A DNA stretch of 64,000 nucleotides, taken from assembly GCA_049281195.1 (NCBI GenBank), contig JBAPRR010000428.1, positions 8,267-72,266 of the forward strand, in the 5' to 3' direction. Shown here in pieces: positions 19,602 to 39,909 of this stretch. Below the pieces are notes generated by a model. It was given only the letters and a program-made list of their open reading frames with translations, had not been told where the DNA came from and did no database searches. The DNA comes from Acidimicrobiales bacterium (lineage in GTDB: Bacteria > Actinomycetota > Acidimicrobiia > Acidimicrobiales > CAVXTF01). The first letter of the stretch is position 1. Every line of letters starts with the position of its first letter. Both the position numbers and the translations under genes were made by a program.

Positions 19602-22600
19602 ATGTCTGACCTGAGCCTCGCTGCCCGGGGGGTCGTTGGCATTTCGGGCACAGAAGAGCTCGAAGAGGTACTGCTGGTACCCGAAAGCCAGACCGATCCC
19701 CGAACGATCGAAGCAGAGATCGGGATAGGCCGCAGGGTGGTAGTTCTCGCCAATCTGGGCCTCGCTCCTGACGCCTCTCCGGTCTCATTACAAGCCGGGT
19801 CAGTCGTTGCCGATGCCCTCGACTCCTGGCAGGGGCCGGGAACGGTTGTTATCGCGGGGAACTTTCTGGATCTCCGGCGATGCCAGGACGCCGACAGCGG
19901 CGTTACTGCGCAACCCGATGCCGACGCTTCCACGACCAAACAGGCCCTCGACACTCACTCGCGACTCAGCAAGTCGCTTCGCGACTTCGCGTCAGGGCCT
20001 GAGAGGCGTCTGATCTGCCTGCCCGGGAGCACCGACTCAGCGATACAGACGGACCCGCAAGTGAGGGCGGCCATCGAGAAGCTCGGCGCCAACGTCGCAC
20101 CGGCAGTCGACCTCGTGTGCGAAACCACGGCAGGGGCGAAACGGGTGAGGGTGCTCCCCGGTCCTGTGTCGGGAGCAAAGGGTGATGATTTTGCGACTTC
20201 GCCGGAGCCCGAGCCCGAAGTCGGTTGGCAAGGCGGGATGGATCGCCTGGCGGACGCCTCGGCGCTCGAACGTCTGGTCAAGTCACGAACCGTCTACCGA
20301 TGGCTGAGCGGTCACGCGTGGCTGTTCGCAATTCCGTTCCTGATTGTCCTCGTTCTGAGCCTGCCCGCGACGTCGTGGGTCTTCAGCCACGTGCTACCGA
20401 CACATCCGGGGCCCGTTAAGGCCCTACACCGCGTGCGCGACACGCGCCTCGGCGCCAGGCTGCTGGTAGCTGTTCTGGTAGCGATCGTCGAGATCGCGGC
20501 GGCCGGCATAGTCCTGCTCTTCGTTGGCAGGAGACGCTGGTCACGCGTCGGTGGAGAACGCCTGGAGCGGGTGTTCGGGTTCGACGAATTCCATTCAGGG
20601 GCCACGGGCAACGACGAAGCTCGCGACACTGCGACAGCCCTTGTCTCTGCCGGATATGCCGGTGTCGTATCGGGCGCCACGCTTCAGGCGGAACTGACTC
20701 ACTTGGGAACCGGGTTCTTCGCATGCCCCGGGACCGCCGGTGAGGTGGTCGAGGAGTATCCCGGCCGGATGGGCCTCCCTCCTGTTTTCCTCGCGCACCG
20801 ACAGGTCGCCTGGGTGGAGCTCGAAACGGGAGCCGATCTTCACGCCCGACTCCTTTTGGCTCGATCCGACATCCCGGCGGCGACACTCCTCGAGCGCATC
20901 GCTGCACGGCATCATGCGGAACACGAGACAACCCCGGTCGTGGTCGCTGCCCACCCGAGCGGCGGATCGTGGCCACCGGCCCCCGACCTCTCCTCGACCA
21001 GAAGGCGCTCGCGCAGAGCACGTCGACTTGCGTCAGTTTCCATTGCGATCGCCGGTCTGCTCGACCTCATCACTTCGGTAACCCCTCCACTTAGAAGTCA
21101 CTTGCACCTGGTGAGGCAGGTACTTCCTCTTGGTGCGACCCAGGCCGCGGGTGCCCTGGTGGCACTTGCGGGGCTTGGCCTTCTTGCTCTGGCAAGAGGG
21201 GTCCGGCGCGGACAGCACAGGGCTTGGGCTATTTCCGTAGGAGTCCTCGCGAGCACCCTCGTGCTTCACATTGCACGAGGAGCGGACATAACCGCATGGG
21301 TCGTCTCAGCGGTCGTTCTGGCCATACTTCTGGTGTTCCGCCAGGAGTTTCAAGGTGCTTCCGACCGTCCGTCCCTACGGTCGGCGATCATCGCTCTGGT
21401 CGGAGGAGTCGTAGGTATCACCATCGTCGCGACGATCGCGGCTCAAATTGCGATGCTTCTGCATCACGACCGTCGCGTGAGTTTCTGGACGACCGGCGAA
21501 GCCGTAGCGGAGCGCTTGGTGGGCGTTCAGACGATTGTGTTGCCGAAAGGCCTGAACGGCTTCCTTGCACCAAGCCTGGCCACGATCGGGGTGAGCCTCG
21601 CCGCCATAGCCCTGTGGCTGGCTACGCGGCCTGTCGTAGACAGACACACCACTGGGCGATCCGCAGAGGCCAGAGCGCGCGACATCGTCCGGCGCCACGG
21701 AGCCGGCACGCTCGACTATTTCGCCTTACGGAGCGACAAGAAGCGCTTCTTTCATCGCGACAGCGTGGTGGCTTACGCCATCTACGGAGGTGTTTGCCTG
21801 GTCTCTCCTGACCCGATAGGTCCTCTGACTGAGCGGGCACAGACATGGGCCGCGTTCCGGAGATTCGCCGACAGTCGTGGATGGGTGCTCGCGATCATGG
21901 GTGCTTCGGAAGAGTGGCTGCCGATCTACAGGGCGACCGGCATGCACGAGATCTATATCGGCGATGAGGCGGTCGTAGACGTCCAGAAGTTCTCGCTCGC
22001 CGGGGGACACATGAAGGGACTCCGGCAGGCCGCGAACCGCATCGCCAAGTACGGCTACACGGCAACATTCCACGATCCTGCGACCCTCGACCAGACAACC
22101 GGAGCAAAGCTCGCAACTCTGATGGCGCAGAGCCGCCGCGGCGAGATGGAGCGCGGTTTCTCCATGACGCTCGGCCGCATATTCGATCCCAGAGACGAGG
22201 GGCTCGTTCTGTGCGCGGTGTGGGCACCGGACGGGACTCCTGCGGCGATGTGCCAGTTCGTCCGGGCATCGGGAATCGGCGGCTACTCACTGGACCTGAT
22301 GAGGCGCGATCGCGGTGAGCACCCGAACGGCCTTGTCGACTTCGCACTCGTTTCGACGATTGAGTACCTGCGCGAGAAGGGAGCGCGCGGGCTCAGTCTC
22401 AACTTCGCCGCGATGCGCTCGATCCTCGATGGGGAACGCGGCGACGGCGTGGCCCAGCGAGTCGAACGCTGGGCACTCAAGAAGATGTCCTCGTTTCTCC
22501 AGATCGAGACCCTTTGGCGCTTCAACTCGAAGTACGGACCGTCGTGGATTCCCCGCTATATCGTCTACGACACTCCGGAGCACCTGGTACCCGCAGTGCT

Positions 22601-22733
22601 TGCCATTCTTCGGGCCGAGTCGCTGTGGGAGGTGCCGGTCATCGGCAAGATGCTCGGCGCAGCGGAGCGCAGGATTCACACCGATCCGGAGGACCCCGTC
22701 TCACAAAGGATCGGAACAGAAGATCTCGCGTAG
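19602..22733 (+). CDS. MprF-like aminoacyl-phosphatidylglycerol synthase/flippase family protein with an extra N-terminal region
   Basis: The C-terminal about 330 aa matches the DUF2156/LPG-synthase C domain (RHGAGTLDYFALRSDKKRFF...YSLDLMRR...KGARGLSLNFA...RFNSKYGPSW), preceded by multiple TM helices. The N-terminal about 440 aa is additional. Confidence 0.75.
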   Translation: MSDLSLAARGVVGISGTEELEEVLLVPESQTDPRTIEAEIGIGRRVVVLANLGLAPDASPVSLQAGSVVADALDSWQGPGTVVIAGNFLDLRRCQDADSGVTAQPDADASTTKQALDTHSRLSKSLRDFASGPERRLICLPGSTDSAIQTDPQVRAAIEKLGANVAPAVDLVCETTAGAKRVRVLPGPVSGAKGDDFATSPEPEPEVGWQGGMDRLADASALERLVKSRTVYRWLSGHAWLFAIPFLIVLVLSLPATSWVFSHVLPTHPGPVKALHRVRDTRLGARLLVAVLVAIVEIAAAGIVLLFVGRRRWSRVGGERLERVFGFDEFHSGATGNDEARDTATALVSAGYAGVVSGATLQAELTHLGTGFFACPGTAGEVVEEYPGRMGLPPVFLAHRQVAWVELETGADLHARLLLARSDIPAATLLERIAARHHAEHETTPVVVAAHPSGGSWPPAPDLSSTRRRSRRARRLASVSIAIAGLLDLITSVTPPLRSHLHLVRQVLPLGATQAAGALVALAGLGLLALARGVRRGQHRAWAISVGVLASTLVLHIARGADITAWVVSAVVLAILLVFRQEFQGASDRPSLRSAIIALVGGVVGITIVATIAAQIAMLLHHDRRVSFWTTGEAVAERLVGVQTIVLPKGLNGFLAPSLATIGVSLAAIALWLATRPVVDRHTTGRSAEARARDIVRRHGAGTLDYFALRSDKKRFFHRDSVVAYAIYGGVCLVSPDPIGPLTERAQTWAAFRRFADSRGWVLAIMGASEEWLPIYRATGMHEIYIGDEAVVDVQKFSLAGGHMKGLRQAANRIAKYGYTATFHDPATLDQTTGAKLATLMAQSRRGEMERGFSMTLGRIFDPRDEGLVLCAVWAPDGTPAAMCQFVRASGIGGYSLDLMRRDRGEHPNGLVDFALVSTIEYLREKGARGLSLNFAAMRSILDGERGDGVAQRVERWALKKMSSFLQIETLWRFNSKYGPSWIPRYIVYDTPEHLVPAVLAILRAESLWEVPVIGKMLGAAERRIHTDPEDPVSQRIGTEDLA

Positions 22734-24678: not shown

Positions 24679-26127
24679 TCAGTTGTTGCCATCACCGTCG
24701 GTTGTGGTGATTCGGCAGTAGCCGTCGTCACCCGAAGGCGTTGGCTCCGCTGCCGCATATCCCGCGTCATACCCCGACTGAGAGGGGTCCGGCGGAGTCG
24801 CAATCGACCCGTCACCCATATTGCCCTCGGGGATCGGGAAGAAACCGTTGGTCGTAATGATCGATTGAATCTCCTGTCCGTACGTTTGACCGGTCGGACT
24901 AATCGGGTCAGTCACCGCAAAGCTCGACGGGTTGCAGAGGAACCCGTACGTGCCGACGAAGTTCTGCACCGCCTGACTCGTTACGGGTGGTAACGATCCC
25001 GAGTTCGCGAAAGGAAGATTCGCGTTCGAGCCGTCCGAGTAGACGTTGTAGAGCTGACGGTCCGTGAAGTAGGAGCCGTTCTGGATTGTCGTCTGGTCAG
25101 CGGTGACACCGTTGATCTCTCCGAGTTTTGACTTGGACCCCTTTCCGGGACCACTCGCCGGCTCTCCCACGCATTTGCCACTCGGGCAAAGGATCGAGTA
25201 CTTCCCGTAAGAGAAGAAGAAGATCGCGTTGCATGCGACGTCCTGGCTGAAGGCGTCAGGGTTGGAGAAGATGTCACTGACCTCGTTCTCGAAGATCTCG
25301 AAGTCGCTGACGGGCAACCCCAACCTTGTGGCCGTTGCGGAAGCACCACCGTAGGGGTACGAACCCGAAAGCCCGAGATCCGTTGCCCATGTCGATTCCG
25401 TGCCGGAACCAGACTGCGCAATGAAGACGTCGATCGGAGCGCTTGAGCCACCTACTGTCGACCAGTTAGTGGTGTTGCCCTCGTAGATGCTCGCCAGCTG
25501 GGTGTTCGTCAAGCTCGTGATGGTCTTGGACGGCGTCGACGTCGATCCGGTGCTGCAGGTCGTGCCCTTGACCGTCGTGAAGTGGAACCACGGAACTGCG
25601 TCTTCTGCATAGGCGACGAAGTTCAGGCCACTCTTGTCAGGCGTGGAGCCTGTGGTGATAGCTGCTCTTGACGAACGCGCGAAGTCGACCTGAGCGATTT
25701 CGTTGTTAGGAGGACTGGTTGGAGTATCGGCCCCCTCAAGCTCGAGCTCCTTGATGCCGTTGCCGGAGCCCAGAGCAGATTCCTGCCAGACGACGTCGTT
25801 GTAAGGGTTCAAAGGAGGAGTAAGGGTATATCCGTTCTCCCCGCCAGTCGCTGCGGTCGAGTAGCTCGACGCACAGGCGTAGTTGAGCTCTTGGTTGTTG
25901 CTGTTCGCCGTAAGCAGGTTACAGCCCGGCGAGGAGTTGTAGAGGTCCGACAACTGCTGCATCATCGCGTAGGTCGTGTAAGACCCACCGCCGTTGAGCA
26001 CAGTGTTGGCCGGAGCCACGGTCGTAGCACCGGCGGGTACTGCCGTCGCAAGAACAATCATTGATGCCGCAACTGCGGCGCTCAACACGACGGCTCCCCT
26101 CCGGTACCTCCGAAGCATCATGCGCAT
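24679..26127 (-). CDS. Secreted PstS-family (PBP_like_2) substrate-binding protein, paralog 3
   Basis: Signal peptide MRMMLRRYRRGAVVLSAAVAASMIVLATAVPAGA, then NGGGSYTTYAMMQQL and DFARSS-type PstS-like strings. ATG at 26127 is preceded by AGGAGG. No C-terminal anchor. Confidence 0.65.
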   Translation of the reverse strand: MRMMLRRYRRGAVVLSAAVAASMIVLATAVPAGATTVAPANTVLNGGGSYTTYAMMQQLSDLYNSSPGCNLLTANSNNQELNYACASSYSTAATGGENGYTLTPPLNPYNDVVWQESALGSGNGIKELELEGADTPTSPPNNEIAQVDFARSSRAAITTGSTPDKSGLNFVAYAEDAVPWFHFTTVKGTTCSTGSTSTPSKTITSLTNTQLASIYEGNTTNWSTVGGSSAPIDVFIAQSGSGTESTWATDLGLSGSYPYGGASATATRLGLPVSDFEIFENEVSDIFSNPDAFSQDVACNAIFFFSYGKYSILCPSGKCVGEPASGPGKGSKSKLGEINGVTADQTTIQNGSYFTDRQLYNVYSDGSNANLPFANSGSLPPVTSQAVQNFVGTYGFLCNPSSFAVTDPISPTGQTYGQEIQSIITTNGFFPIPEGNMGDGSIATPPDPSQSGYDAGYAAAEPTPSGDDGYCRITTTDGDGNN

Positions 26128-26268
26128 ACTTTTGAGCCTCCTTGGTTGGCAATTCGCGTGGACGGGCCGCGACCACCTGTCGCAGGCATGGCTGTCCACG
26201 AGGCGCACGTTACGAAGCGAAAGTGAACTCCACGTGACTGTTTGGTCCCATGAAGGCAAACTCTTGTC

Positions 26269-26302
26269 AATTACTAGGTGCACGTAATTACTAGGTGCAA
26301 TC
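26269..26302. promoter_or_regulatory. Two tandem 17-nt direct repeats (AATTACTAGGTGCAnnn) in the AT-richer region upstream of PstS paralog 3
   Basis: AATTACTAGGTGCACGT and AATTACTAGGTGCAATC read directly, about 140-175 nt upstream of the start at 26127. A regulatory role is inference only. Confidence 0.3.
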
Positions 26303-26473
26303 AACGCCTTTTGCGCCACACACTTGAAGCCACACGTTCAACGTTTCTCCCGTTCGCAACATAAAATTCTTTCGATTCCACTCCATACCGTCACGTCGCA
26401 GTACGCAGTTCAACGGTGGCATGGGCCAACGACTGCAGGGAAGCTGCGGGAAGCGCCGCTCCTGAAAGGTGCC

Positions 26474-26992
26474 TCAGCTGCTGGTTGGGGTCGTTAACGG
26501 AGTCGGGTACTGAAGAACCAGCAATCCGTGGAAACCCGAGGCTGAATGGTAAGTATTGCTTCCCCCGAAATTTGGTTTCCATACAAAGGACCAATGCGGT
26601 GGAATGGTCTGCGAACTAACCGGTATGTGGTCGAATACGACCTTTTGGGGCACCGAACTGAGGTTTATCCAGGTCACGGCCACTTGGTCATTGGCGTAAA
26701 GGGTTTCGGGCCAAAAGCCACTTGATTCGATCAGGATCGTATTTCCGGAACCCTGATCCTGCGTTATTGGAATGTCATGGTTGTTGCCTTCTCCAGGCTT
26801 GGTGGTAGGAGTGCTCGGAGGGGCGACCAATTGTCCTTGCGGATACGGATTGGTCGTGCTCGTCGTACTGCCGGTGCCCCCGTTTGTGGTCGAAGTCGTC
26901 GAGCCAGAGGCCTTACCGGAACTTCCGCCGCAGGCAGAGATGCAGCTTACGAACGTGATTACTGCCAAAAGGACGCCGAGGCGGCGCAACAT
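26474..26992 (-). CDS. Lipoprotein with a cupredoxin-like domain (copper ligands apparently not conserved)
   Basis: Lipobox VSCISAC-G, a Ser/Thr/Gly linker, then FWPETLYANDQVAVTWINLSSVPQKVVF...YHSASGFHGLLVLQ. This resembles the cupredoxin pattern F.P..l.v..G..V.W.N.D..PH ... Y.C..H..M.G, with Gln and Ser at the ligand positions. Confidence 0.45.
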   Translation of the reverse strand: MLRRLGVLLAVITFVSCISACGGSSGKASGSTTSTTNGGTGSTTSTTNPYPQGQLVAPPSTPTTKPGEGNNHDIPITQDQGSGNTILIESSGFWPETLYANDQVAVTWINLSSVPQKVVFDHIPVSSQTIPPHWSFVWKPNFGGSNTYHSASGFHGLLVLQYPTPLTTPTSS

Positions 26993-27014: not shown

Positions 27015-28004
27015 TCAAAGGGTTGATGGGAGACACCTCGCGAGAGTCTCGCAAGCGAAGAGCCCGCAAGCCAGCAAGAGAGGAGATGCGAGCAGCCATG
27101 ATACCCACGGCTGGCGCCACTTTCTGATCGAGAACATCATGAAGCCGAGGATGAAAATGAAGGCGATGGCCCACAACGCGGCAAGGATCCCCGCCGCGTT
27201 GTCTCCGACGAAGCTCGGAATGGTTACCGCTCTGGACGCTTTCCCGCTCCCTACTGGCTGACCGTCGAGACGAGCTACGACCACGGATCGGCCGGTTGGA
27301 AGCCATGCCGAGTTGGAGGTGACCAGTACGAGCCAGCTGCGGCCGTATCTGGGGGTCGAAATCGTCCCCTGCGAAATAGTCTCCACGTTGGTCACGGAGT
27401 AGCTGAAGTCGCCTGCGCCGTCGATCACTTGAATGGTGTCTCCGGGTTGAAGACTCGAGATGCCTCTGAAGGCGCCTCCGAAGCTCACGCGTCGACCGGC
27501 GATAACCGTGTTGCCAGGCTCACCGGGAACGATGAACTTTCCCCCTGAAGCTTCGGCAAGGCCCGGACCCATTTGGAGGTCTGCAGATGAGGTTCCGTTT
27601 ACAACAGCCTGGTGAACCCCGAGGACAGGAATGTTGAGCACCGCAACCGGCGCTCCGTTCTTCGGAGCATTTCCTTCCGCAAGGCTGAACACGGCCCGGG
27701 GGTCGCTGCTCAAGGTGTGCAGGAGCCTGTTCTGGCTCCGAGCGGCGCTGAGACCGGAGAAGACATAGAGGTAAAGGATGAACATGGCGAGCAACACGCC
27801 GGCCAGGGTCATGGCCAGTCCGATGAGCTCGACCCGTCGGCTCTTCGGTCCGCCGGAAGCCTTCGCTCCTTCTGTGGAAGTGAGGTTGTCGGGAACCTCG
27901 GCCAAATGAAGTCTGTCGTGGTTTGAACCGGCAACTTCATCTGGCGGGAACTGGCGTACAGGATCCCGTTCGAGAGGTAGCGAGGACGCGATCGTTTCAC
28001 TCAT
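27015..28004 (-). CDS. Sortase-fold membrane protein lacking the canonical catalytic His and Cys
   Basis: Aligns with class E sortases: PVAVLNIPVLGVHQAVVNGT...GPG...PGEPGNTVIAGRR...LQPGDTIQV...WLVLVTSNS...GRSVVVARL. AGHR becomes AGRR (codon 27492-27494) and TLxTC becomes LVTS (codon 27315-27317). One N-terminal TM and two C-terminal TMs. ATGA overlap with the upstream stop (28001-28004). Confidence 0.75.
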   Translation of the reverse strand: MSETIASSLPLERDPVRQFPPDEVAGSNHDRLHLAEVPDNLTSTEGAKASGGPKSRRVELIGLAMTLAGVLLAMFILYLYVFSGLSAARSQNRLLHTLSSDPRAVFSLAEGNAPKNGAPVAVLNIPVLGVHQAVVNGTSSADLQMGPGLAEASGGKFIVPGEPGNTVIAGRRVSFGGAFRGISSLQPGDTIQVIDGAGDFSYSVTNVETISQGTISTPRYGRSWLVLVTSNSAWLPTGRSVVVARLDGQPVGSGKASRAVTIPSFVGDNAAGILAALWAIAFIFILGFMMFSIRKWRQPWVSWLLASPLLLACGLFACETLARCLPSTL

Positions 28005-30478
28005 GTTTGTACGTGCGCTTTCCTGAGTCTGCGTCGAGCCCTCGGAGCGAGGACGAGCAGTGGTCCGACGATTAGACCGAGCAGGGCGGCTCCACCGAGA
28101 CCGGCGACGATCCACCGTTCCGTCCCCTGAGCTAGGGCGAGGACCTCAGGCTCGAAGCCCTTACCCGGGCCTTTGGGTGGTGGAGTAGAGGCAGAAGACC
28201 TGATCACCGGTTTCGAAGTCACCGGCGGTGCGGTCACCGGGCTAGTCGAAGGAGTCGAAACCGGCGTGGTGGCGACGACCCCGCTCGTGATCGGAGTCGT
28301 CGTATTGACGCGAGTGGTGGGGATCGGAGTCCTAGGAGCGGTCGGCGTTGTCGTTTTTTTCCCAGTGGATCCGCTGGAGCTTCCCGGAAGAGCCGGAGGA
28401 GTTCCGTTGCAGGACGACTCCGTGTAAGGGAACGTGCTCGAGATTGTTTGTCGGGCCTGGTTGTAGAGACTTTGAGTCAACGGCACGTATCCGGTAGGCA
28501 TGGGGACACTGCTCGTTCCACCCTCGTACGAGTAGCAAACGAGGTTCGTTAGGAGGTCCCCTTCCGCTTGCGAATTCGCGGGTGTCTGAGCGGATGTAGG
28601 AACGACGGCGTAGGTGACTAGCGGCATCGGGTAAGCGAGGGGATCCCCGGTGTCGTCGTAGTTGTACGCCAAAACGCCATTCGATCCAACCGTCGCATCT
28701 CCAAGGGCCGCGTCGATGGATTTCTGTGAAGGAGTTACGAAAACCCCGGCGGCATTTTGAATCGCCGCGGAGTTCAGGCCGAGGTACGAAGCCTCTGACC
28801 AGTCGAGCGCTCCAAACCCTGCGGTGGGGTGTTGGGTTCCCGTGGGAGGTGCTGCACCACCGGAAAAGACATAGCCGCGCAGCCGGTACGCCTGCAGCTC
28901 GGGTGTCGAGTCGAATTGATATTGATCAGTCGCCGACGCAAGCACCGGCAGATCTGAGTAGGGAGTGCACGACGTGTAAGGCCAAACCGCGCTGCCATTG
29001 CCGTTAGGAGGGGGCCACGCCACCCCGGCTGTGGGCGGGGTCACAAGTGTCGTCGTCGCGACATTCGGATCGGTGACGCTTTCGGGAGTCGGCACCGGTT
29101 GGCCGTGCACTTTCAGGGGAACCGTTACCGTTATCGGAACATTCGGAGCACTGCAGGCCCAGTTCGTCACCTGGTAGCTCGAACCGCTCGCGGTGCTCGA
29201 GAAGAACATCCCGAAGGCGCCCGGCGCCAATGTACCGGAAGGAACCGGGTTCAGAAGATCGAACGTGTCGTAATTATCGGGACCGGTGGTGTCTCCCGAC
29301 TTTGTTCCACACTCGTAAATCTTGTTGCAGTCCAGGGGAGGCATTACCAGATCGGACCCATAACCCTCCGCGTACGTACTGGTTATGAGCCCGGCAACCA
29401 TGTTCGGTGTCAGCTCGTAGGTGCTCACGGGGAACGATTGGGAATCTGCCTGATCAAAGTCACCGTCCAGGAATCCCATCACGGTCGCTGATACCGCGAT
29501 AGGGATGTATTTCACGCTCATACCCGAAAGCGTCTGTTGTTGGGCCGTGTCTTGTGGCTCGTCGGTAAAAGCGACGGGGACCGTCCCGGTAGAAAAGTCA
29601 GAGATGACCTGGTCGGTGTTGGTGGCGACGTTCAGGGCGGATACACCGCCGGCGCCGGTACATGTGGCGTCGACGGCAGCAGGAAGGAAATGTTCGACAC
29701 TGAACGCGCTTTCGGTCTGGATCTGCGGATCTGAGGTCGGACACCCGTTGGTCGTTGATGCGAACGTTATGGGAATTATCGCCGTGTTGGCAGAGGTCTC
29801 GTCAGTGCTCGTGGCGCCATTCGGCAGGTCCTCAACTTCGATGCCACAGTAGTCAGGTCCGTTGTCACAGTAGAACGGCACCTTTGGATCTGCGTTCGAG
29901 ATGATCGGATCGGCCGGCAAGGGCGCGTTCCCATCCCCCGACGGTTGAAACTGGGTCGGGTAGCTGGCAGTCGCCGTGCCGTCCGGCTCCACGGGAATCG
30001 CGATCGGACTGAACGAAACCTGATCGGGATCGAGACCATTTGCACATTGCGGGTCGCCGCCGGGAACGATCTCGGGCGGATCTGTTATCGGGCAGTACGC
30101 GACTCTCACGAAATCGGTCGTCGGGAAGTTCGTCATGTCTATGTATACGTACTCACCGTTCCCGACGTTGGTGGTCGGGCCGATGGTTACCGTGGGACAA
30201 GACGAGGAGCAACCCGAGCCGATTTGGACGGTCACGCATTGCGACACACCGCCCGGGCAGTTCTGTGGCGTGTCTGCGACGGCGGCGGAGTTGAAGACGT
30301 TGCCCGCAGGAGTGGAGAAGAGCACCGCGGAGAACACGAACAGCGCGATGCCGTAGCGCACTAAGCGGACGCTGTTGAAGGTAGACGCACCGGGGCGAGC
30401 AGGGTGTGACCTGCGCTCAGGGCCCCGCACCTTTTGGTGCAACCCCTTCGTGCGCTTGAAGCGGATATTGAAGAACAT
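28001..30478 (-). CDS. Large secreted PstS-like (PBP_like_2) domain protein with a Cys-rich N-terminal region, Thr/Pro-rich stalk and C-terminal TM anchor
   Basis: Signal peptide VRLVRYGIALFVFSAVLFS. Central region KYIPIAVSATVMGFLDG... resembles PstS-family proteins. C-terminus reads TTTPTAPRTPIPTT...STPPPKGPGKG...WIVAGLGGAALLGLIVGPLLVLAPRARRRLRK. ATG at 30478 lies 5 nt after the upstream stop. Confidence 0.6.
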   Translation of the reverse strand: MFFNIRFKRTKGLHQKVRGPERRSHPARPGASTFNSVRLVRYGIALFVFSAVLFSTPAGNVFNSAAVADTPQNCPGGVSQCVTVQIGSGCSSSCPTVTIGPTTNVGNGEYVYIDMTNFPTTDFVRVAYCPITDPPEIVPGGDPQCANGLDPDQVSFSPIAIPVEPDGTATASYPTQFQPSGDGNAPLPADPIISNADPKVPFYCDNGPDYCGIEVEDLPNGATSTDETSANTAIIPITFASTTNGCPTSDPQIQTESAFSVEHFLPAAVDATCTGAGGVSALNVATNTDQVISDFSTGTVPVAFTDEPQDTAQQQTLSGMSVKYIPIAVSATVMGFLDGDFDQADSQSFPVSTYELTPNMVAGLITSTYAEGYGSDLVMPPLDCNKIYECGTKSGDTTGPDNYDTFDLLNPVPSGTLAPGAFGMFFSSTASGSSYQVTNWACSAPNVPITVTVPLKVHGQPVPTPESVTDPNVATTTLVTPPTAGVAWPPPNGNGSAVWPYTSCTPYSDLPVLASATDQYQFDSTPELQAYRLRGYVFSGGAAPPTGTQHPTAGFGALDWSEASYLGLNSAAIQNAAGVFVTPSQKSIDAALGDATVGSNGVLAYNYDDTGDPLAYPMPLVTYAVVPTSAQTPANSQAEGDLLTNLVCYSYEGGTSSVPMPTGYVPLTQSLYNQARQTISSTFPYTESSCNGTPPALPGSSSGSTGKKTTTPTAPRTPIPTTRVNTTTPITSGVVATTPVSTPSTSPVTAPPVTSKPVIRSSASTPPPKGPGKGFEPEVLALAQGTERWIVAGLGGAALLGLIVGPLLVLAPRARRRLRKAHVQT

Positions 30479-30483
30479 CTGCC

Positions 30484-32250
30484 TCACCCGGCCGCCTTCG
30501 TGGAGGGACGTCGCCTTCGACGGCCGAGGATGAAGACCGGCAGGAAAACTGCGGCAAGGAACACGATGCACCAGCAGGCGATCTGGACTGCAGGTGAAGA
30601 GAAGCCGAGTGCGGTCGCCGCGCCGGCCCTGAAATCTGCAGATCGCGCGTAGATACTCGGGCCACTCGTCTTCTCGACCTTCTTGAGATGCTTTAGGTAC
30701 TTCTGAGCGGCGGCCGCGGCGGGCGACGTGGTAGCGGTGGTCGATCCTTTGCCCCCAGTCGAGGGGTTCGTATCTCCTGGGGTCGTCGTACCCGTCGATC
30801 CGCCCGGACCGTTGGTGCCGGTACTTCCCGGATTGGATCCACTCGTAGTCGTAGAAGTATGGCTGCCGGACTTACCCTCCCCACCCCCACCAGATGGCAC
30901 CGTCTGGTTGGTAGTCGGAGGATTACCCCCGATGATCGAAGGTTCGCCCGGAAGGACGGTCTGTCCATCGACATATGGATTCTTGCAATCCGCCGAAGAC
31001 ACTTGCGGGGGCTGTTGTCCGCCGTTCATCCGGCCAATGGCGTTGAAGTCCTCCTGCACCAGGTTGGGTGGCAGCGGCGAATAGCCCAATACGGCCATCT
31101 GCTGCTGCCCCGCGCACGCCAGGAATTGGACGAATTGGCCCAGAGCTTGACCCTTTACAGCCGGGAACGGGGATGAAGCTCCGGTGCCGCTGCACTTGGT
31201 CGTCGAACCCGCCGCCACCAAATTCGGAGAACACGGCGTGACCAGGTAGCTGTACGAGGAAAGGGGGTAGGCGTTGGGAAGAGGGTTCGTATAGACGCTG
31301 GCGAGGTTCTGAGTCAGGTCGGCATATAGAACGGCATCCTCGAGCGCGGTTGCGTCGTTGACCGAGGTCGGTTGCACGGGGTTTCCATCGGCATTCACGA
31401 CGGACGCCACCGGGTCGCTGTGCTGAATTGCGTAAGCGGTCTCGACATAGGTGATCGCGCCATTGCTCGAAGCAGCTGCCACATAGTTGGCAGCGTTGTC
31501 CGATCCGCTCTGTCCTTGCAGGTTGTTATTCGTCCAACCCGGGTAGCCAGGAGGCACTACGGTTCCGGGGGGCGGCGTCGGCCACGTCGCCGACGGAGCG
31601 TCGATCGGCGACGCCTGCATCGCATTCTGGTAGGCAACGAAGTCCGAGTTGTCCTCGTGAAGCAGGTAGTCGGAAAGAAGGTAATTCTCACCTGACGCAT
31701 CAACCCGATACACGGGGATGATGGTGGTGCACGGCATGTTTCCCTGTATCGAAGGGGGCTGGATCTGGACGATCTGGGGAGCGCACCACGTGGTGATGAC
31801 GCCGGTGAAGATCTCCTCGATCACCTGCGTCGTCAGAACGAGGCTCTTGATCTGCGTTCCCGATTGGGACCCTTGAAGGTTGTACATGAAGGCCAAGGCG
31901 CCGGCGACGTCCGGCAGGTACTGATAAGGCTGATTCGGCTCTTCGAGGGCCTGGCCGGAGCTGTAAGGAATGTCGGAGGCACCGAAGTCGATCTGGTTCT
32001 CGGCGAAGTCGTCCAGACCGACCACAGAAGAAGAAACCTGAAAGTTGATGCTGAGCCCGTAAAGCGTGGACGCCTCACCGATCCATTGTTCGATCGCCAC
32101 GCCGGCGAAGCTGGAGCCGGTCGACTCGAGAGCGGGTGAAGCGGCGGCCTGGGTGGCCGGAGCAAGCGCGGCAAACAGCCCGACCGCGTTCACTGCAATG
32201 AACGTGGCCAGCCACTTGATACGGCGAATCCGGGTGCGGCGGAGTTTCAT
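30484..32250 (-). CDS. pstS: PstS-family phosphate-binding protein with a Gly/Thr/Ser-rich stalk and C-terminal TM anchor
   Basis: Signal peptide MKLRRTRIRRIKWLATFIAVNAVGLFAALAPATQAAA. PstS-like STGSSFAGVAIEQW...NFQVSSSVVGLDDFAENQIDFGASDIPY. C-terminus IACWCIVFLAAVFLPVFILGRRRRRP. Directly follows pstB. Confidence 0.75.
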   Translation of the reverse strand: MKLRRTRIRRIKWLATFIAVNAVGLFAALAPATQAAASPALESTGSSFAGVAIEQWIGEASTLYGLSINFQVSSSVVGLDDFAENQIDFGASDIPYSSGQALEEPNQPYQYLPDVAGALAFMYNLQGSQSGTQIKSLVLTTQVIEEIFTGVITTWCAPQIVQIQPPSIQGNMPCTTIIPVYRVDASGENYLLSDYLLHEDNSDFVAYQNAMQASPIDAPSATWPTPPPGTVVPPGYPGWTNNNLQGQSGSDNAANYVAAASSNGAITYVETAYAIQHSDPVASVVNADGNPVQPTSVNDATALEDAVLYADLTQNLASVYTNPLPNAYPLSSYSYLVTPCSPNLVAAGSTTKCSGTGASSPFPAVKGQALGQFVQFLACAGQQQMAVLGYSPLPPNLVQEDFNAIGRMNGGQQPPQVSSADCKNPYVDGQTVLPGEPSIIGGNPPTTNQTVPSGGGGEGKSGSHTSTTTSGSNPGSTGTNGPGGSTGTTTPGDTNPSTGGKGSTTATTSPAAAAAQKYLKHLKKVEKTSGPSIYARSADFRAGAATALGFSSPAVQIACWCIVFLAAVFLPVFILGRRRRRPSTKAAG

Positions 32251-32281: not shown

Positions 32282-33103
<822 letters not shown>

Positions 33104-33131
33104 CTGCGCTCTCTCTTGTCGCTTCCGTTCA

Positions 33132-34388
33132 TCAAATGTCTGTCCGTGAATCGTCGTCACCGAGCAACGCCAGAATGTCGGAGTCAACGGCGGCCATCAC
33201 CGGAGTTCTGGCGTCCTTGCGTCGTGAACTCAACTTCAGTCGCTTTCCACCGCGGGTGCGGCCTGCGATCCGTGCCAAGACGAAAAGGATGAGAACTAAC
33301 GAGATCAAGACGAACCCGGATTGATAGGCGAGGTCGATCAGAACCGGCTGGGCTTGGCGGACGTTCGTGTAAACCTCCAAGGGGAGGCTCTCTTGGGGAT
33401 TGTGGAACACATTGGCGTTCATGATCTGAGATCCGAAGGCTGTGAAGAGAAGCGGTGCCGTCTCGCCGACGATTCTGGCGATCCCGAGGAGTACAGCGGT
33501 CACGACACCCGAACGCGCCGTCGGTAGAACAACCGACCAGACCGTCCTCCACTCTGGCGCGCCTAGCGCTGCTGATGCTTCTCTAAGTCCGGAAGGAACG
33601 ACCCTGAGGACCTCCTCTGTCGTCCTCGTTACTGCCGGGAGGAGCAGCACGAACAGAGCGAGGGAGGCGGCGATGCCGGAGTAGCTGAGCCAGTGATTGA
33701 TTATGAAGATCGAATAGATGAACAGTCCGGCGACGATGGAGGGGAGGCCGCTCATTGCGGTAACGACGGTCCGGACCATCCGCGTGCCGCGCCCCCCTAC
33801 CTCGTTCAAGAACACTGCCGTCGCCACCGCTATCGGAACGCCGATCACCGCGGCCACGCCTACTTCTTCAAGAGTCCCGACAATCGCATGTTCGATTCCG
33901 ACGTGTGCCAAAGCGTTGGGCTCCGCCGGTTCGAAGCCTTTCTGCGTCTTTGTGAAGAGCGCTCCCCAGTGGATGTGTCCGATTGCCTTCAAGAAGACGT
34001 AGACGATGATGAAGATGACGAGACCGATGACGATTGCCGCCCCGGTCGTCATGATGACCGTGACGATCCGGTCCGTAGCCATCTGGGATTCAGTCAGCTT
34101 GGCCGTCACGATCCAGTACAGGACCAGGAATGCGAAGTACCAGCACAACAGGAAGCCGAAGCCGCCCGAAAGAAGGGTCAGCTGGTAGAAGAGCACCCAA
34201 ACGAAAGCAAAGGCCGAAAGGGCCGAAAGCAGCAGCAGGGCGACGTCGGACCTGGTGAAGTTCTTCGGTCTGATCGGCGACGACCGCGTTGGCCTGGGTG
34301 GCCGCGCTGTCGGCGGGACTGCAGGAGGCGCACTGTCAGTTGTTACGCCACCAGTCGCGCCTTCTGGCGGGTTTAGGAGCTGCGTCAC
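33132..34388 (-). CDS. pstA: Phosphate ABC transporter permease PstA (with a Pro-rich N-terminal extension)
   Basis: Permease core GIEHAIVGTLEEV...EASAALGAPEWRTVWSVVLP (EAA loop). GTG at 34388 forms a GTGA overlap with the pstC stop. The longer ORF to 34712 is Arg-rich shadow sequence. Confidence 0.88.
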   Translation of the reverse strand: MTQLLNPPEGATGGVTTDSAPPAVPPTARPPRPTRSSPIRPKNFTRSDVALLLLSALSAFAFVWVLFYQLTLLSGGFGFLLCWYFAFLVLYWIVTAKLTESQMATDRIVTVIMTTGAAIVIGLVIFIIVYVFLKAIGHIHWGALFTKTQKGFEPAEPNALAHVGIEHAIVGTLEEVGVAAVIGVPIAVATAVFLNEVGGRGTRMVRTVVTAMSGLPSIVAGLFIYSIFIINHWLSYSGIAASLALFVLLLPAVTRTTEEVLRVVPSGLREASAALGAPEWRTVWSVVLPTARSGVVTAVLLGIARIVGETAPLLFTAFGSQIMNANVFHNPQESLPLEVYTNVRQAQPVLIDLAYQSGFVLISLVLILFVLARIAGRTRGGKRLKLSSRRKDARTPVMAAVDSDILALLGDDDSRTDI

Positions 34389-35380
34389 AGTTCGACCCCA
34401 GCTCCACTGCGACTGCGGTTGACGATCGCCGATGCGATGAGGTTCACGACGAGCGTCAGGGCGAACAGGACGAAGCCGCACATCAGAAGGTCCTCGAGAC
34501 CATGCTGTCCGCCGGAGCCGAAGTTGATGGCGATGAGACTGGCGATCGTCGAACCGCCGTGGCCGAGAATGTGTGGCGAGATGACGAACGCCTGACCGAG
34601 GATGATCGACACGGCGATCGTCTCTTCGAGCGCGCGGCCCATGCCGAGCATCACCGCTCCGATCATTCCGCCTTTGCCGAATGGCAGCACGACCGTCCTG
34701 ATCATCTGCCAACGGCTCGCTCCGAGCGCCATCGCGGCCTCACGCTCGCCGGCAGGCGCTAGAGAGAAGACCTCGCGGCTGACCGAGGCCACGATCGGAA
34801 CGATCATCAGGCCGACGACCAGTCCCGCGATGAAAAGCGAGGCGTTGTACGGAGGGTGCAGGACCTTGAAGATCGGGATGAACCCAAGATGGTTGGACAT
34901 CCATGAGCTGATGCCGACCACGTTCGGCTGGAGCTCGAAAAAGCCCCATAGCCCGTAGATGACCGACGGGATGGCCGCGGCCAGGTCGACCAGGGCGATC
35001 AGAGTGCGCCTGCTCCACGGGGGGGCGTATTCGCTCAGGAACAGGGCGGTCGTGAGTGCTACAGGCACTCCGACTACGAGAGCGACCAGAGCCACGACGA
35101 CGGTCCCGTAGAGGGAGGCGAGTACTCCGAAAGTGGGATGGGCCCCGAGCGTCTGGTATCCCGAGGTGGTGAAGAACTTGAACCCGCGAACCTTGATGGC
35201 CGGGAGTCCGTGGATCAGGAGGAACAGCCCGATCAGGAACAAGAGGATCAGCGCGCCGTATCCGGCCCCGCGCACAGTCCCGCGATAGATCCGATCTTCC
35301 TTGGACCGCAGGTTCTTGAGTGTTATGGGGCGCGGCCCTAGGGGCGACGCCGCCCGTGGCAAATCAGCTGTCTGTGACAC
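34385..35380 (-). CDS. pstC: Phosphate ABC transporter permease PstC
   Basis: 6-TM permease with the EAA loop EREAAMALGASRWQMIRTVVLP. First gene of the operon. Confidence 0.9.
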   Translation of the reverse strand: MSQTADLPRAASPLGPRPITLKNLRSKEDRIYRGTVRGAGYGALILLFLIGLFLLIHGLPAIKVRGFKFFTTSGYQTLGAHPTFGVLASLYGTVVVALVALVVGVPVALTTALFLSEYAPPWSRRTLIALVDLAAAIPSVIYGLWGFFELQPNVVGISSWMSNHLGFIPIFKVLHPPYNASLFIAGLVVGLMIVPIVASVSREVFSLAPAGEREAAMALGASRWQMIRTVVLPFGKGGMIGAVMLGMGRALEETIAVSIILGQAFVISPHILGHGGSTIASLIAINFGSGGQHGLEDLLMCGFVLFALTLVVNLIASAIVNRSRSGAGVEL

Positions 35381-36465: not shown

Positions 36466-38160
36466 TCAGTGGAAGAGCAGTGTGGCGCCGTGGGCGAAGT
36501 TGATGATCGGAGAGGGCCACACCCCGAACAACACGGTCACCAGAGCACATAGGAAGATGCCCGTGGCGATCGAAAGGGGGATCGGCAATGCCGCCGCCGC
36601 CTGGGTCCGAATCGTGGTCAGCACGGTCGCTCCGCCGACATCAGCAGCTGCAAGGACTGGTGATCCCACAACCACTGCACCGCCCGAGCCTCGGTTCCCC
36701 AAGCCGGCTGGGCCTTCGTCGGCAACATCAACGTCAACGACGTCACCTATGTCACCCTGAGCCGCATTCGGGTTCTGGACCATGTAGAGCACCAGGCGCA
36801 GGTAGAAGAACCCGGCGATGACGGCCGAGACCATGGCGATGATCGACAGGGCTATGCCTCCCGGCGTGCCCGTTGCCCCCTCGATCACATAGATCTTCGC
36901 CCAGAGACCCGTCGTGGCCGGCATGCCCGCCTGTGCGAGCAGGAAGATGATCATCGGCACCGCCAACCAGGGTTGTCGGAAGGCCAGGCCTCTCCAGCTG
37001 TCGAGGTCGTGGTTGGCATCACCGAGGCCCGCGACCACGGTTACCACGCCGAAGCTCCCCATCACCATGAACGAATAGGTGAAGAGGTAGTAGAGGGACC
37101 CGGACACGCCTCTCTGTGTGGCGAGGTACAGGCCCAGAAGGATGAAGCCGGCGTGGTTTATGGACGAGTACGCCAGCATGCGCTTCACGTCGCGCTGCAC
37201 GACACCTACGACCGCGCCGAACAGCAGGGTGATCACAGCCAGCACCCAGATGATCGGCTGCCAATCAGCTCGAACCGTCGGAAAGGAGGACACGAAGACG
37301 CGGAGCAACGCCGCGAACCCCCCGGTCTTCGCCACCGCGGCCATGAAGCCGGTGACCGGGCTGGGCGATCCCTGGTACACGTCGGGTGTCCACAGATGGA
37401 ACGGCACTGCGGCGATCTTGAACGCGAAGCCGACGAGCAGCAGTGCGATGCCGGCCAGTAACAGCCCGTTGTGCAGAAGGATGTTCTTCGAAAGGAAGTC
37501 GGCGATCTGGGCCAGGTTGGTAGACCCTGTGGCTCCGTAGACGAGGGCCATGCCGTAGAGGAAGACGGCCGAAGAGAACGAGCCGAGGACGAAGTACTTG
37601 AGCGCCGCTTCGCCGGACTCTTCCCTGCGGGCGTTACCCGCAGCCAGCACGTACAGGGCGATCGACATGATCTCGAGACCGAGGAACACTAGGATCAGGT
37701 CATTCGCCTCGCCCATGAGCATGGCGCCCATGGCGGAAACGAGCATAAGGGCGTGCATCTCCGGTCCGTCGCTCTTCTCGCGTACCAGCCAGCCCTGGCC
37801 GATGAACGCAGTGACGATCACCGCGCACGACACCAGGATGGTGATGAATGCGCTGAAGCCGTCCTGGATGACAGAAGAGTCGATCGTTACGTGGGCACCA
37901 TGGGCTGTGGTGTTGATCCATTGCCCGACGCCGGCTATGAGGCTGGCCGACCCGGTGAGGATCGTGAGGCTCGCTGCAGTCGTCGCCTCCATCCGCTTGC
38001 GTAGAAGCGCGGAGCTTCCGAGCATCACAAGGGCGCCACCCAAGGTGAGCAACTCGGGGAGGATCGCCAGGTAGGTGATCGAAGGAAGCTTCAGATGCTG
38101 AGCGCTTGCCGCGTTAGCAGTGGTGGCGAACGCCGCAGTGGCGAGAAACGACAGGCTCAT
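36466..38160 (-). CDS. nuoN: NADH-quinone oxidoreductase subunit N
   Basis: Polytopic antiporter-like subunit and last gene of the nuo operon. 4-nt overlap with nuoM. Carries a low-complexity acidic/Gly insert near the C-terminus. Confidence 0.9.
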   Translation of the reverse strand: MSLSFLATAAFATTANAASAQHLKLPSITYLAILPELLTLGGALVMLGSSALLRKRMEATTAASLTILTGSASLIAGVGQWINTTAHGAHVTIDSSVIQDGFSAFITILVSCAVIVTAFIGQGWLVREKSDGPEMHALMLVSAMGAMLMGEANDLILVFLGLEIMSIALYVLAAGNARREESGEAALKYFVLGSFSSAVFLYGMALVYGATGSTNLAQIADFLSKNILLHNGLLLAGIALLLVGFAFKIAAVPFHLWTPDVYQGSPSPVTGFMAAVAKTGGFAALLRVFVSSFPTVRADWQPIIWVLAVITLLFGAVVGVVQRDVKRMLAYSSINHAGFILLGLYLATQRGVSGSLYYLFTYSFMVMGSFGVVTVVAGLGDANHDLDSWRGLAFRQPWLAVPMIIFLLAQAGMPATTGLWAKIYVIEGATGTPGGIALSIIAMVSAVIAGFFYLRLVLYMVQNPNAAQGDIGDVVDVDVADEGPAGLGNRGSGGAVVVGSPVLAAADVGGATVLTTIRTQAAAALPIPLSIATGIFLCALVTVLFGVWPSPIINFAHGATLLFH

Positions 38161-39905: not shown

Positions 39906-39909
39906 CGCG

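Follow-up and report, generated by a model that had tools for sequence, protein, structure and literature searches.

Sortases are treated as obligate Cys-His-Arg transpeptidases. What, then, is the function of a sortase-like protein in which both the Cys and the His have been replaced? Such a protein is encoded in a 64,000-nucleotide stretch of contig JBAPRR010000428.1 from an Acidimicrobiales bacterium (the window). We call the 329-residue product pSrt, for pseudo-sortase. A preliminary description of the locus, made from the sequence, had left two options, a non-catalytic pseudo-sortase or an enzyme with a different nucleophile. Here we show that the substitutions extend across a large family encoded within Pst-type transporter operons, and we present evidence that the C-terminal tail of these proteins is docked in the former active site.

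Public data hold an identical protein (P0001), labelled "MAG: sortase [Acidimicrobiales bacterium]", where MAG stands for metagenome-assembled genome. The open reading frame (ORF), the overlap of its ATG with the stop of the preceding gene, the codons of R171 and S230 at the positions of the catalytic His and Cys, and the retained R239 all lie where the preliminary description had placed them (Table 1).

A sortase fold without the catalytic pair

The Pfam Sortase profile PF04203 matches residues 123-246 with 56.5 bits (gathering cutoff 26.6), a significant hit at E=3e-15. TIGR01076 scores 34.6, just under its cutoff of 39.35. The best subfamily model is the NCBIfam class E sortase NF033747, which reaches 66.8 bits against a cutoff of 160 and whose match ends before the Cys block. 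Using phmmer against PDB sequences we obtained the S. avermitilis class E sortase 5go6 (E=4e-9). In this alignment AGHR pairs with AGRR, LTLVTC with LVLVTS and the conserved Arg with R239. Foldseek searches with both AlphaFold models returned sortases only, from classes D and E. The best matches were 4d70 (TM-score 0.77) and 5go5 (0.75), and the class E enzymes of T. fusca and S. coelicolor were also found. Profile, alignment and fold comparison thus all agree with the sortase fold that had been proposed for the protein.

As evidenced by these comparisons, pSrt has the profile, the eight-stranded β-barrel and the β8 Arg of the superfamily but neither the catalytic Cys of TLxTC nor the catalytic His that follows β4. 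With respect to class E, it falls short of the curated cutoff and lacks the Tyr of the β3/β4 loop (GLGHY of 5go6 versus GPGLA), which in class E enzymes reads the Ala of LAxTG (PMC5148588). Because the catalytic features, the class E cutoff and the loop Tyr are all wanting, pSrt should be classified neither as a sortase enzyme nor within class E. A second sortase was looked for in the window and none was found.

The catalytic residues are lost across the family

A profile search of 1.84 billion representatives of 50% identity clusters yielded 524 proteins at E<1e-30; among the top 150, almost every match extends to the last profile position. Close relatives comprise a further 55 clusters (90% identity level) that are 45-86% identical to the window protein. 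In their alignment R172, S230 and the C-terminus ..WRQxWVSWLLAAPVLLACGLFACESLARCLPSTL are strongly conserved. A second homologue search with a broader alignment recovered mostly the same close clade and added little. All genomes are MAGs, mostly labelled Acidimicrobiales or Acidimicrobiaceae. Other labels are Actinomycetota, Gaiellales, Pseudonocardiaceae, one Mycobacterium sp. and one Dormiibacterota. Public annotations name the family "sortase A" or "class E sortase".

Residues were counted in 202 aligned sequences drawn from the close-homologue and profile searches. Cys never occurs at the Cys position, which holds Ser in 159 sequences, Ala in 26, Gly in 5 and Thr in 3, so that 17% of the sequences carry Ala, Gly or Thr. 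The His position is occupied by Arg (158), His (23), Lys (14) or Ser (4), and the Arg position by Arg (123), Lys (16) or His (15). Cysteine is entirely absent from 72 of the 202 proteins. The same picture emerges from 75 loci of GTDB species representatives (L011-L086), where the Cys position is Ser in 35, Ala in 27 and Thr in 13 and again never Cys; since the scan patterns for these loci demand R or K at the His position, their His counts are biased and only those for the Cys position are informative. Whole clades among these loci have Val, Ala or Leu at the Arg position. The most degenerate active sites are found in L073, L080 and L084 (also L071, L076 and L079), from Pseudonocardiaceae- or Mycobacterium-labelled MAGs. 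In these proteins, whose genes lie between those for the anchored PstS and PstB, the Cys position holds Thr, the Arg position Val, and the tail reads LPN[LVI]L.

The Cys is therefore missing throughout the family, while neither the Ser (159/202) nor the Arg (158/202) that replaces the catalytic pair in the window protein is invariant. Since position 230 tolerates Ala, Gly and Thr, Ser230 does not qualify as a conserved nucleophile, and since many members contain no Cys, a thiol is not supplied from elsewhere in the protein. We also considered the three C-terminal Cys of the window protein (C313, C318 and C324) as a replacement nucleophile or a metal site and rejected this as a family feature, as the triplet is confined to the query's subclade. 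Overall, it is well supported that the window protein is a pseudoenzyme whose catalytic residues were lost across a full-length, conserved family. Of the two options left by the preliminary description, the non-catalytic one is supported by these data, and the different nucleophile is disfavored.

Some MAGs contain two separate pseudo-sortase loci (L021 and L027, L030 and L054, L070 and L072), each with its own binding-protein neighbors where flanks are present. In four copies the frame is fragmented or the tail missing (L085:7791-8817, L057:7785-8834, L064:7758-8788, L054:7851-8693). These could reflect frameshift errors in long-read MAGs or real pseudogenization.

A transmembrane hairpin and a tail that resembles a sorting signal

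Nearly every full-length member ends in [LF]-L-P-[ASGN]-T-[LMFVI]-COOH. Of 190 aligned sequences, 189 have P326 and 174 have T328, and one clade carries LPN[LVI]L instead. Preceding this tail is a hairpin of two transmembrane (TM) helices, TM2 and TM3. They are joined by the basic cytoplasmic loop IRKWRQPW, conserved as RRWRQ in the family. TM1 is extended to residue 100 by a conserved juxtamembrane helix (R89, Q91, L94). In the predicted topology the N-terminus is inside, and the sortase domain and the last seven residues are on the same, outer side of the membrane. The LPxTL tail at the end of this hairpin is the hallmark of the family and is absent from the preliminary description. That description had reported two extra C-terminal TM helices containing three Cys. 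The helices stand, but the Cys are not distributed over both, as all three lie in the last helix and the tail. In TM3, P308 and E319 are invariant, and C313 and C318 are clade-specific.

A first AlphaFold run with 49 sequences gave a pLDDT (predicted local distance difference test) of 63, with the active-site loops and the tail below 50, and was replaced by a run with 150 diverse family members. The latter reached a mean pLDDT of 87.9 and a predicted template modeling score (pTM) of 0.79. Residues 321-329 have a pLDDT of 93, and the tail is therefore predicted to be in a defined place and not floppy.

Where this place might be was indicated by coevolution. Mean-field direct-coupling analysis (DCA) was performed on 345 non-identical sequences (~263 effective). 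The top couplings fit the fold, connecting β1 with β2 (A121-V134), β4 with β7 (N165-V226) and β7 with β8 (L225-A244) as well as TM2 with TM3 (I293-S307, I293-A306) and TM1 with TM3 (L79-A322, M74-C318, Y78-L315). Among 36,585 pairs, the strongest partner of T328 is S230 at the old Cys position (rank 53), that of L329 is R171 at the old His position (rank 67), that of S327 is A150, where class E enzymes have the loop Tyr (rank 77), and that of L325 is T229, the residue before the old Cys (rank 82). Four of the five tail positions thus have their top partner in a set of 12 defined active-site positions, which holds for only 4% of the other positions (binomial P about 1e-5). When the intact clade described below was removed, L329-R171, S327-A150 and L325-T229 were still the best couplings of their tail residues, at ranks 46-55, and T328-S230 fell to rank 644.

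These data support a model in which the tail is bound in the register of a substrate, with Leu329 as P1' at the old leaving-group His, Thr328 as P1 at the old nucleophilic Cys and Ser327 as P2 at the site of the class E Tyr, as in a substrate whose P2 and P3 residues face the β3/β4 loop. The most probable location of the tail is the former active site, either of its own chain or of another protomer. As it would lie there in substrate register, pSrt would represent a self-liganded sortase fold.

Intact relatives share the hairpin

Relatives of the distant member P0088 include 31 proteins with a full catalytic triad (GNAAIAGHRTTYG ... RLTLTTCHP ... R). They share the TM hairpin and end in FFENFARLLP[AS]N[VFIY]; examples are P0252 (L087:9858-10697) and P0301 (L088:10001-10981). 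Two proteins of this clade exceed the NCBIfam class E cutoff with 164.8 and 172.5 bits, and one is 28% identical to the window protein from end to end, hairpin and tail included. The intact clade is encoded outside pst loci; in two unrelated contigs its genes lie divergently beside ccmABCEF cytochrome c maturation genes.

With an ordinary class E sortase as root, a neighbor-joining tree groups all Cys-less members in one clade whose sister is the intact clade, and the Cys-less members that still have the His are placed near the base of their clade. The residue before the C-terminus follows the same division. It is Asn where the Cys is present (29 sequences, plus 2 with Ser) and Thr where it is absent (278 sequences), with Leu, Val or Ile in the clade that has Thr at position 230. 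S. coelicolor SrtE1 ends with its catalytic domain (PMC5148588).

Since an intact His-Cys-Arg sister clade has the same hairpin, the query family is a catalytically dead paralogue of a bona fide class E sortase. The simplest reading of the sequences is that a class E lineage gained the hairpin and a pseudo-substrate tail and that one paralogue then lost first the Cys, next the His and, in places, the Arg. The LLP[AS]N[VFIY] tail of the intact enzymes may itself be an undescribed built-in pseudo-substrate or lid.

P0205 was also considered as a relative and rejected. It is an ordinary class E sortase in an unrelated context and served only as outgroup. One metagenomic contig also encodes, 4 kb downstream of its pseudo-sortase cassette, a short class F-like sortase whose Cys is intact (..LRLITCGG..; L006:14845-15303).

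pSrt is a fixed member of a Pst-type operon

In the window, the pSrt gene follows genes for PstC-, PstA- and PstB-like transporter components, an anchored PstS-like binding protein and a large, diverged PstS-like protein, here called X (Table 1). The same cassette is found in contigs with homologues at 64%, 54%, 47% and 31% identity and also in the distant half of the family. At least one of pstA, pstB and pstC lies within 8 kb in 66 of the 75 GTDB loci, and the rest are mostly short contigs. In 62 of the 75, X or the anchored PstS is encoded directly upstream and ends at the start of pSrt. Stop and start overlap in 50 of these 62, by 4 bp in 37 (ATGA or GTGA), by 1 bp in 9 and by 8 bp in 4. 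In the window, the ATG at 28004-28002 overlaps the TGA at 28003-28001. The linkage to anchored PstS-like genes and the translational coupling noted for the window are hence general features, even though the gene does not always follow such a gene.

The canonical order is pstC-pstA-pstB-PstS(anchored)-X-pSrt. In Pseudonocardiaceae-labelled MAGs it is pstC-pstA-PstS(anchored)-pSrt-pstB, which puts pSrt inside the transporter operon. The conserved context is thus the whole Pst transporter operon and not the two genes considered in the preliminary description. pSrt is a fixed member of this Pst-type operon and is translationally coupled to an anchored PstS-like protein. One locus from the distant half (L009) also adjoins genes for PhoU, a HisKA/response-regulator pair (PhoR/P-like), polyphosphate kinase (PPK) and CHAD proteins. 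We infer the phosphate specificity of the transporter from the homology of PstS, PstC, PstA and PstB and from such nearby Pho genes.

The anchored PstS is composed of a signal peptide, a PBP domain, a low-complexity linker and a C-terminal TM helix followed by RRRRR. Its anchor is conserved in orthologues as GPPL plus an Arg cluster. Since the longest ORF of X reaches 88 bp into the upstream gene, translation probably begins at M32 (30478). That X is anchored stood up to analysis, while its likeness to PstS is weak in the window (TIGR00975 E=2.5e-9), and a sequence search against solved structures gave no match. Less diverged orthologues (L006:7827-10028, L008:8175-10004, L009:7947-10004) show PBP_like_2 across the whole domain and a neocarzinostatin-like N-terminal domain. 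The anchor helix of X usually opens, at the membrane edge, with R-[YFLW]-[LF]-[LV]-P-[ASGT] and contains GPLL, followed by an Arg cluster. We searched the neighboring anchored proteins for LPXTG or LAXTG motifs and found none, only the R-x-L-L-P of X and GP(P)L with the Arg cluster. By sequence, a motif, a hydrophobic segment and a basic tail give these anchors the layout of a sorting signal, minus a cleavable LPXTG or LAXTG.

What does pSrt do?

We consider it somewhat probable that pSrt is a catalytically dead three-helix protein derived from class E, with its tail in the old active site, which serves as a non-catalytic adaptor for the anchored PstS-like proteins. As a membrane adaptor or holdase, it would catalyze no reaction. 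PstS-like proteins would dock on it through their anchors in the way that substrates bind the active sister, packing against the TM bundle and perhaps pushing the tail aside. Because docked anchors would never be cleaved, the complex would be stable and would retain the binding proteins at the PstCA permease.

Several points weigh against this explanation. The adaptor role rests on gene linkage and analogy, and a groove filled by the tail could receive a partner only once the tail had moved out. R-x-L-L-P is absent from the anchored PstS proteins, and in X of the window's own subclade the motif has degenerated to TERWIVAG, with the LLP lost. Docking of the tail is supported by pLDDT and by coevolution from ~260 effective sequences with simple mean-field inference, and T328-S230 is mainly a between-clade signal. 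The tree is distance-based and has no support values, and the bias of the locus scan towards R or K at the His position also has to be kept in mind.

An extension of the adaptor model that we hold tentatively is that an enzyme-substrate pair has been frozen into a receptor-ligand pair. A class E lineage would have acquired a pseudo-substrate tail of its own as a gate to the active site. The paralogue that later lost catalysis would hold PstS-type anchors uncut and would have become a sortase-derived docking subunit of an ATP-binding cassette (ABC) importer in uncultured Actinomycetota. If true, a non-catalytic sortase family would for the first time have a defined role in the cell, and monoderm bacteria would have a new way of tethering binding proteins.

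Instead of a scaffold, pSrt may be a regulator, either a decoy that shields the PstS-like anchors from the housekeeping sortase or a gate or sensor of the Pst transporter. The linkage evidence is identical to that for the adaptor, an active paralogue of the same architecture co-exists in the lineages, and the loci of the Pseudonocardiaceae type place the gene between pstA/PstS and pstB. The data in hand do not separate a regulator from a passive adaptor, although for a decoy it is unfavorable that the anchors carry no motif known as a class E sortase cleavage site. We regard a regulatory role as not very likely.

Could pSrt still be an enzyme? Ser230, Thr229 or a tail-delivered Cys324 could act as nucleophile, with Arg or Lys at position 171 replacing the His, and the PstS-like anchors or the protein's own tail as substrate. 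In favor of this, position 230 holds Ser more often than any other residue, 185 of 202 sequences have Thr229, C324 is conserved within the query's subclade, an LPxT motif is predicted to lie in the site, and strong constraint acts on the fold and on the substrate-site residues. Thr229, however, is equally conserved in true sortases (TLxTC) and its conservation is hence inherited, and C324 would sit at about P5, distant from the scissile position. Furthermore, Ala or Thr replaces Ser230 in 40 of the 75 loci in addition to the 17% of aligned sequences with Ala, Gly or Thr, the Arg239 position is Val, Ala or Leu in whole clades, with Val or Ala in that bearing the LPNLL tail, the 72 Cys-free members have no thiol to offer, and Arg is a poor general base. 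An unconventional nucleophile is poorly compatible with these data, and we judge it improbable.

We give just as little credence to the idea that LPxTL is a real sorting signal, cut after the Thr by a housekeeping sortase that would free only the last residue and link pSrt and the Pst complex covalently to peptidoglycan. The tail is LPXTG-like and predicted to be outside beside the membrane, where sortases act, and an intact related sortase occurs in the same bacterial lineages. On the other hand, P1' is not Gly and no hydrophobic or charged segment follows. LAxTG is the preferred motif of class E sortases, which select against Pro at P3 (PMC5148588). One clade has LPNLL, without the Thr, the tail coevolves with the protein's own active-site positions, and the intact sister enzymes bear the same kind of tail.

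Finally, sequencing errors at the two codons or a drifting pseudogene are a negligible prospect and fit the data poorly, since despite the few fragmented or truncated copies hundreds of independent sequences obtained in different projects carry the substitutions, the ORF has its full length, gene order is fixed and the motifs are strongly conserved down to about 30% identity.

Comparison with known systems

Class E sortases (S. coelicolor SrtE1 and SrtE2, S. avermitilis SrtE 5go5, T. fusca SrtE 9iok; NF033747) are the best sequence and fold matches to pSrt. Both are of actinobacterial origin and have an N-terminal TM helix and a conserved linker helix, and they have in common the blocks GPG.., PGxxGN.., IAGxR, GD.I and LTLVT. 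Unlike class E sortases, pSrt is without the catalytic Cys, has Arg for His and Ala for the loop Tyr, adds two C-terminal TM helices and the LPxTL-COOH tail, and is encoded in a pst operon and not beside LAxTG substrates. With the intact three-helix class E sortases it shares the TM hairpin, the RRW loop, P308 and the FEN/CES..AR.LP motif. In contrast to pSrt, these enzymes keep AGHR, TLTTC and the Arg, and their tails read LP[AS]N-[VFIY] instead of LPxT-L.

In class C (pilus) sortases, as predicted for pSrt, a segment of the protein itself fills the substrate groove and a C-terminal membrane anchor is present. Their lid is an N-terminal DPW-type loop of an active enzyme that does not mimic a sorting signal, and the anchor is one helix and not a hairpin. 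On the level of concept, iRhoms and Derlins, the inactive rhomboids, offer a parallel. Here a dead homologue of an intramembrane or juxtamembrane protease keeps client recognition and acts as a non-catalytic partner of membrane-anchored clients. They are eukaryotic and have no homology to pSrt, for which client binding is suggested by analogy.

Neither Pfam nor NCBIfam contains a model specific for the pSrt family, and full-text literature searches found no description of a pseudo-sortase, an inactive sortase or a sortase linked to PstS or Acidimicrobiia. The preliminary description had likewise known of no described family. For the intact three-helix subgroup no description was found either. 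What appears to be new in the pSrt branch is the combination of the TM hairpin with a self-docked mimic of a sorting signal, as modeled here, in a consistent Pst genomic setting.

Because a large, conserved, cysteine-free branch reuses the sortase fold without catalysis, sortase counts and the predicted capacity for surface anchoring are overstated in Acidimicrobiia and related MAGs. The self-docked LPxT tail suggests an unnoticed autoinhibition or gating device, also in the intact sisters, which could serve sortase engineering. The fixed place in the Pst operon points to an unknown accessory subunit of phosphate uptake in abundant, uncultured soil and peat Actinomycetota, whose binding proteins are anchored by C-terminal helices and not by lipid anchors.

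Features and neighboring genes

Table 1 Features of pSrt and its operon in the window (residue numbers refer to pSrt).
Feature	Coordinates	Strand	Basis
pSrt coding sequence, 329 aa	27015..28004	-	ORF and sequence; stop codon 27015-27017 included
Variable cytoplasmic N-terminal region, residues 1-58	27831..28004	-	Low pLDDT, no conservation; basic end KSRR before TM1
TM1, about residues 59-84	27753..27830	-	AlphaFold helix 54-100; TM1-TM3 coevolution contacts
Extracytoplasmic sortase-fold β-barrel, about residues 113-250	27255..27668	-	Pfam 123-246; pLDDT 86-98; Foldseek
A150, position of class E β3/β4-loop Tyr	27555..27557	-	5go6 alignment, GxGHY to GPGLA
R171 (CGA), position of catalytic His, in IAGRR	27492..27494	-	Codon and 5go6 alignment
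S230 (TCC), position of catalytic Cys, in LVLVTSNS	27315..27317	-	Codon and 5go6 alignment
R239, position of catalytic Arg (β8), in PTGRSVVVA	27288..27290	-	Kept in the window protein
TM2, about residues 270-292, outside to inside	27129..27197	-	AlphaFold helix 270-296; TM2-TM3 couplings
TM3, about residues 300-322, inside to outside	27039..27107	-	AlphaFold helix 299-322; conservation
C-terminal tail R-C-L-P-S-T-L-COOH, residues 323-329, sorting-signal-like	27018..27038	-	Conservation, pLDDT, coevolution
pstC-like permease	34385..35380	-	BPD_transp_1 E=7e-9
pstA-like permease (longest ORF, true start probably internal)	33132..34712	-	BPD_transp_1 E=1e-20
pstB-like ABC ATPase	32282..33187	-	ABC_tran E=4e-34; synteny
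Anchored PstS-like binding protein, 606 aa	30484..32304	-	PBP_like_2 E=6e-23; TIGR00975 E=3e-43
Protein X, large, diverged PstS-like	28001..30571	-	TIGR00975 E=2.5e-9; C-terminal TM helix and Arg-rich tail
Small lipoprotein, 172 aa, lipobox ISAC	26474..26992	-	Directly downstream of pSrt in many loci
Third PstS-like protein (PBP2)	24679..26319	-	PBP_like_2 E=9e-10; syntenic in most loci

The 172-residue lipoprotein downstream of pSrt has a Thr/Ser/Gly-rich linker and matched no Pfam or NCBIfam family; counterparts are found at L002:11014-11517 and L006:11053-11508. The third PstS-like protein has an N-terminal signal and no C-terminal anchor, and it shares its conserved end, ..GYCR[IV]TTTDGDGNN, with the counterparts in L001 and L004.

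Upstream of the pst genes, genes for Mrp/Nuo-type antiporter subunits (Proton_antipo_M) occupy 36466-41889 on the reverse strand. As the same neighbors recur in L001 and L004, synteny extends past the cassette. On the other side, at 19602-22733 on the forward strand, a gene encodes a 1043-residue MprF-like protein with LPG_synthase_C, a TM region of the lysyl-tRNA-synthetase type and a long extra N-terminal region. The cassettes of L001 and L004 likewise have an LPG_synthase_C gene at their flank.

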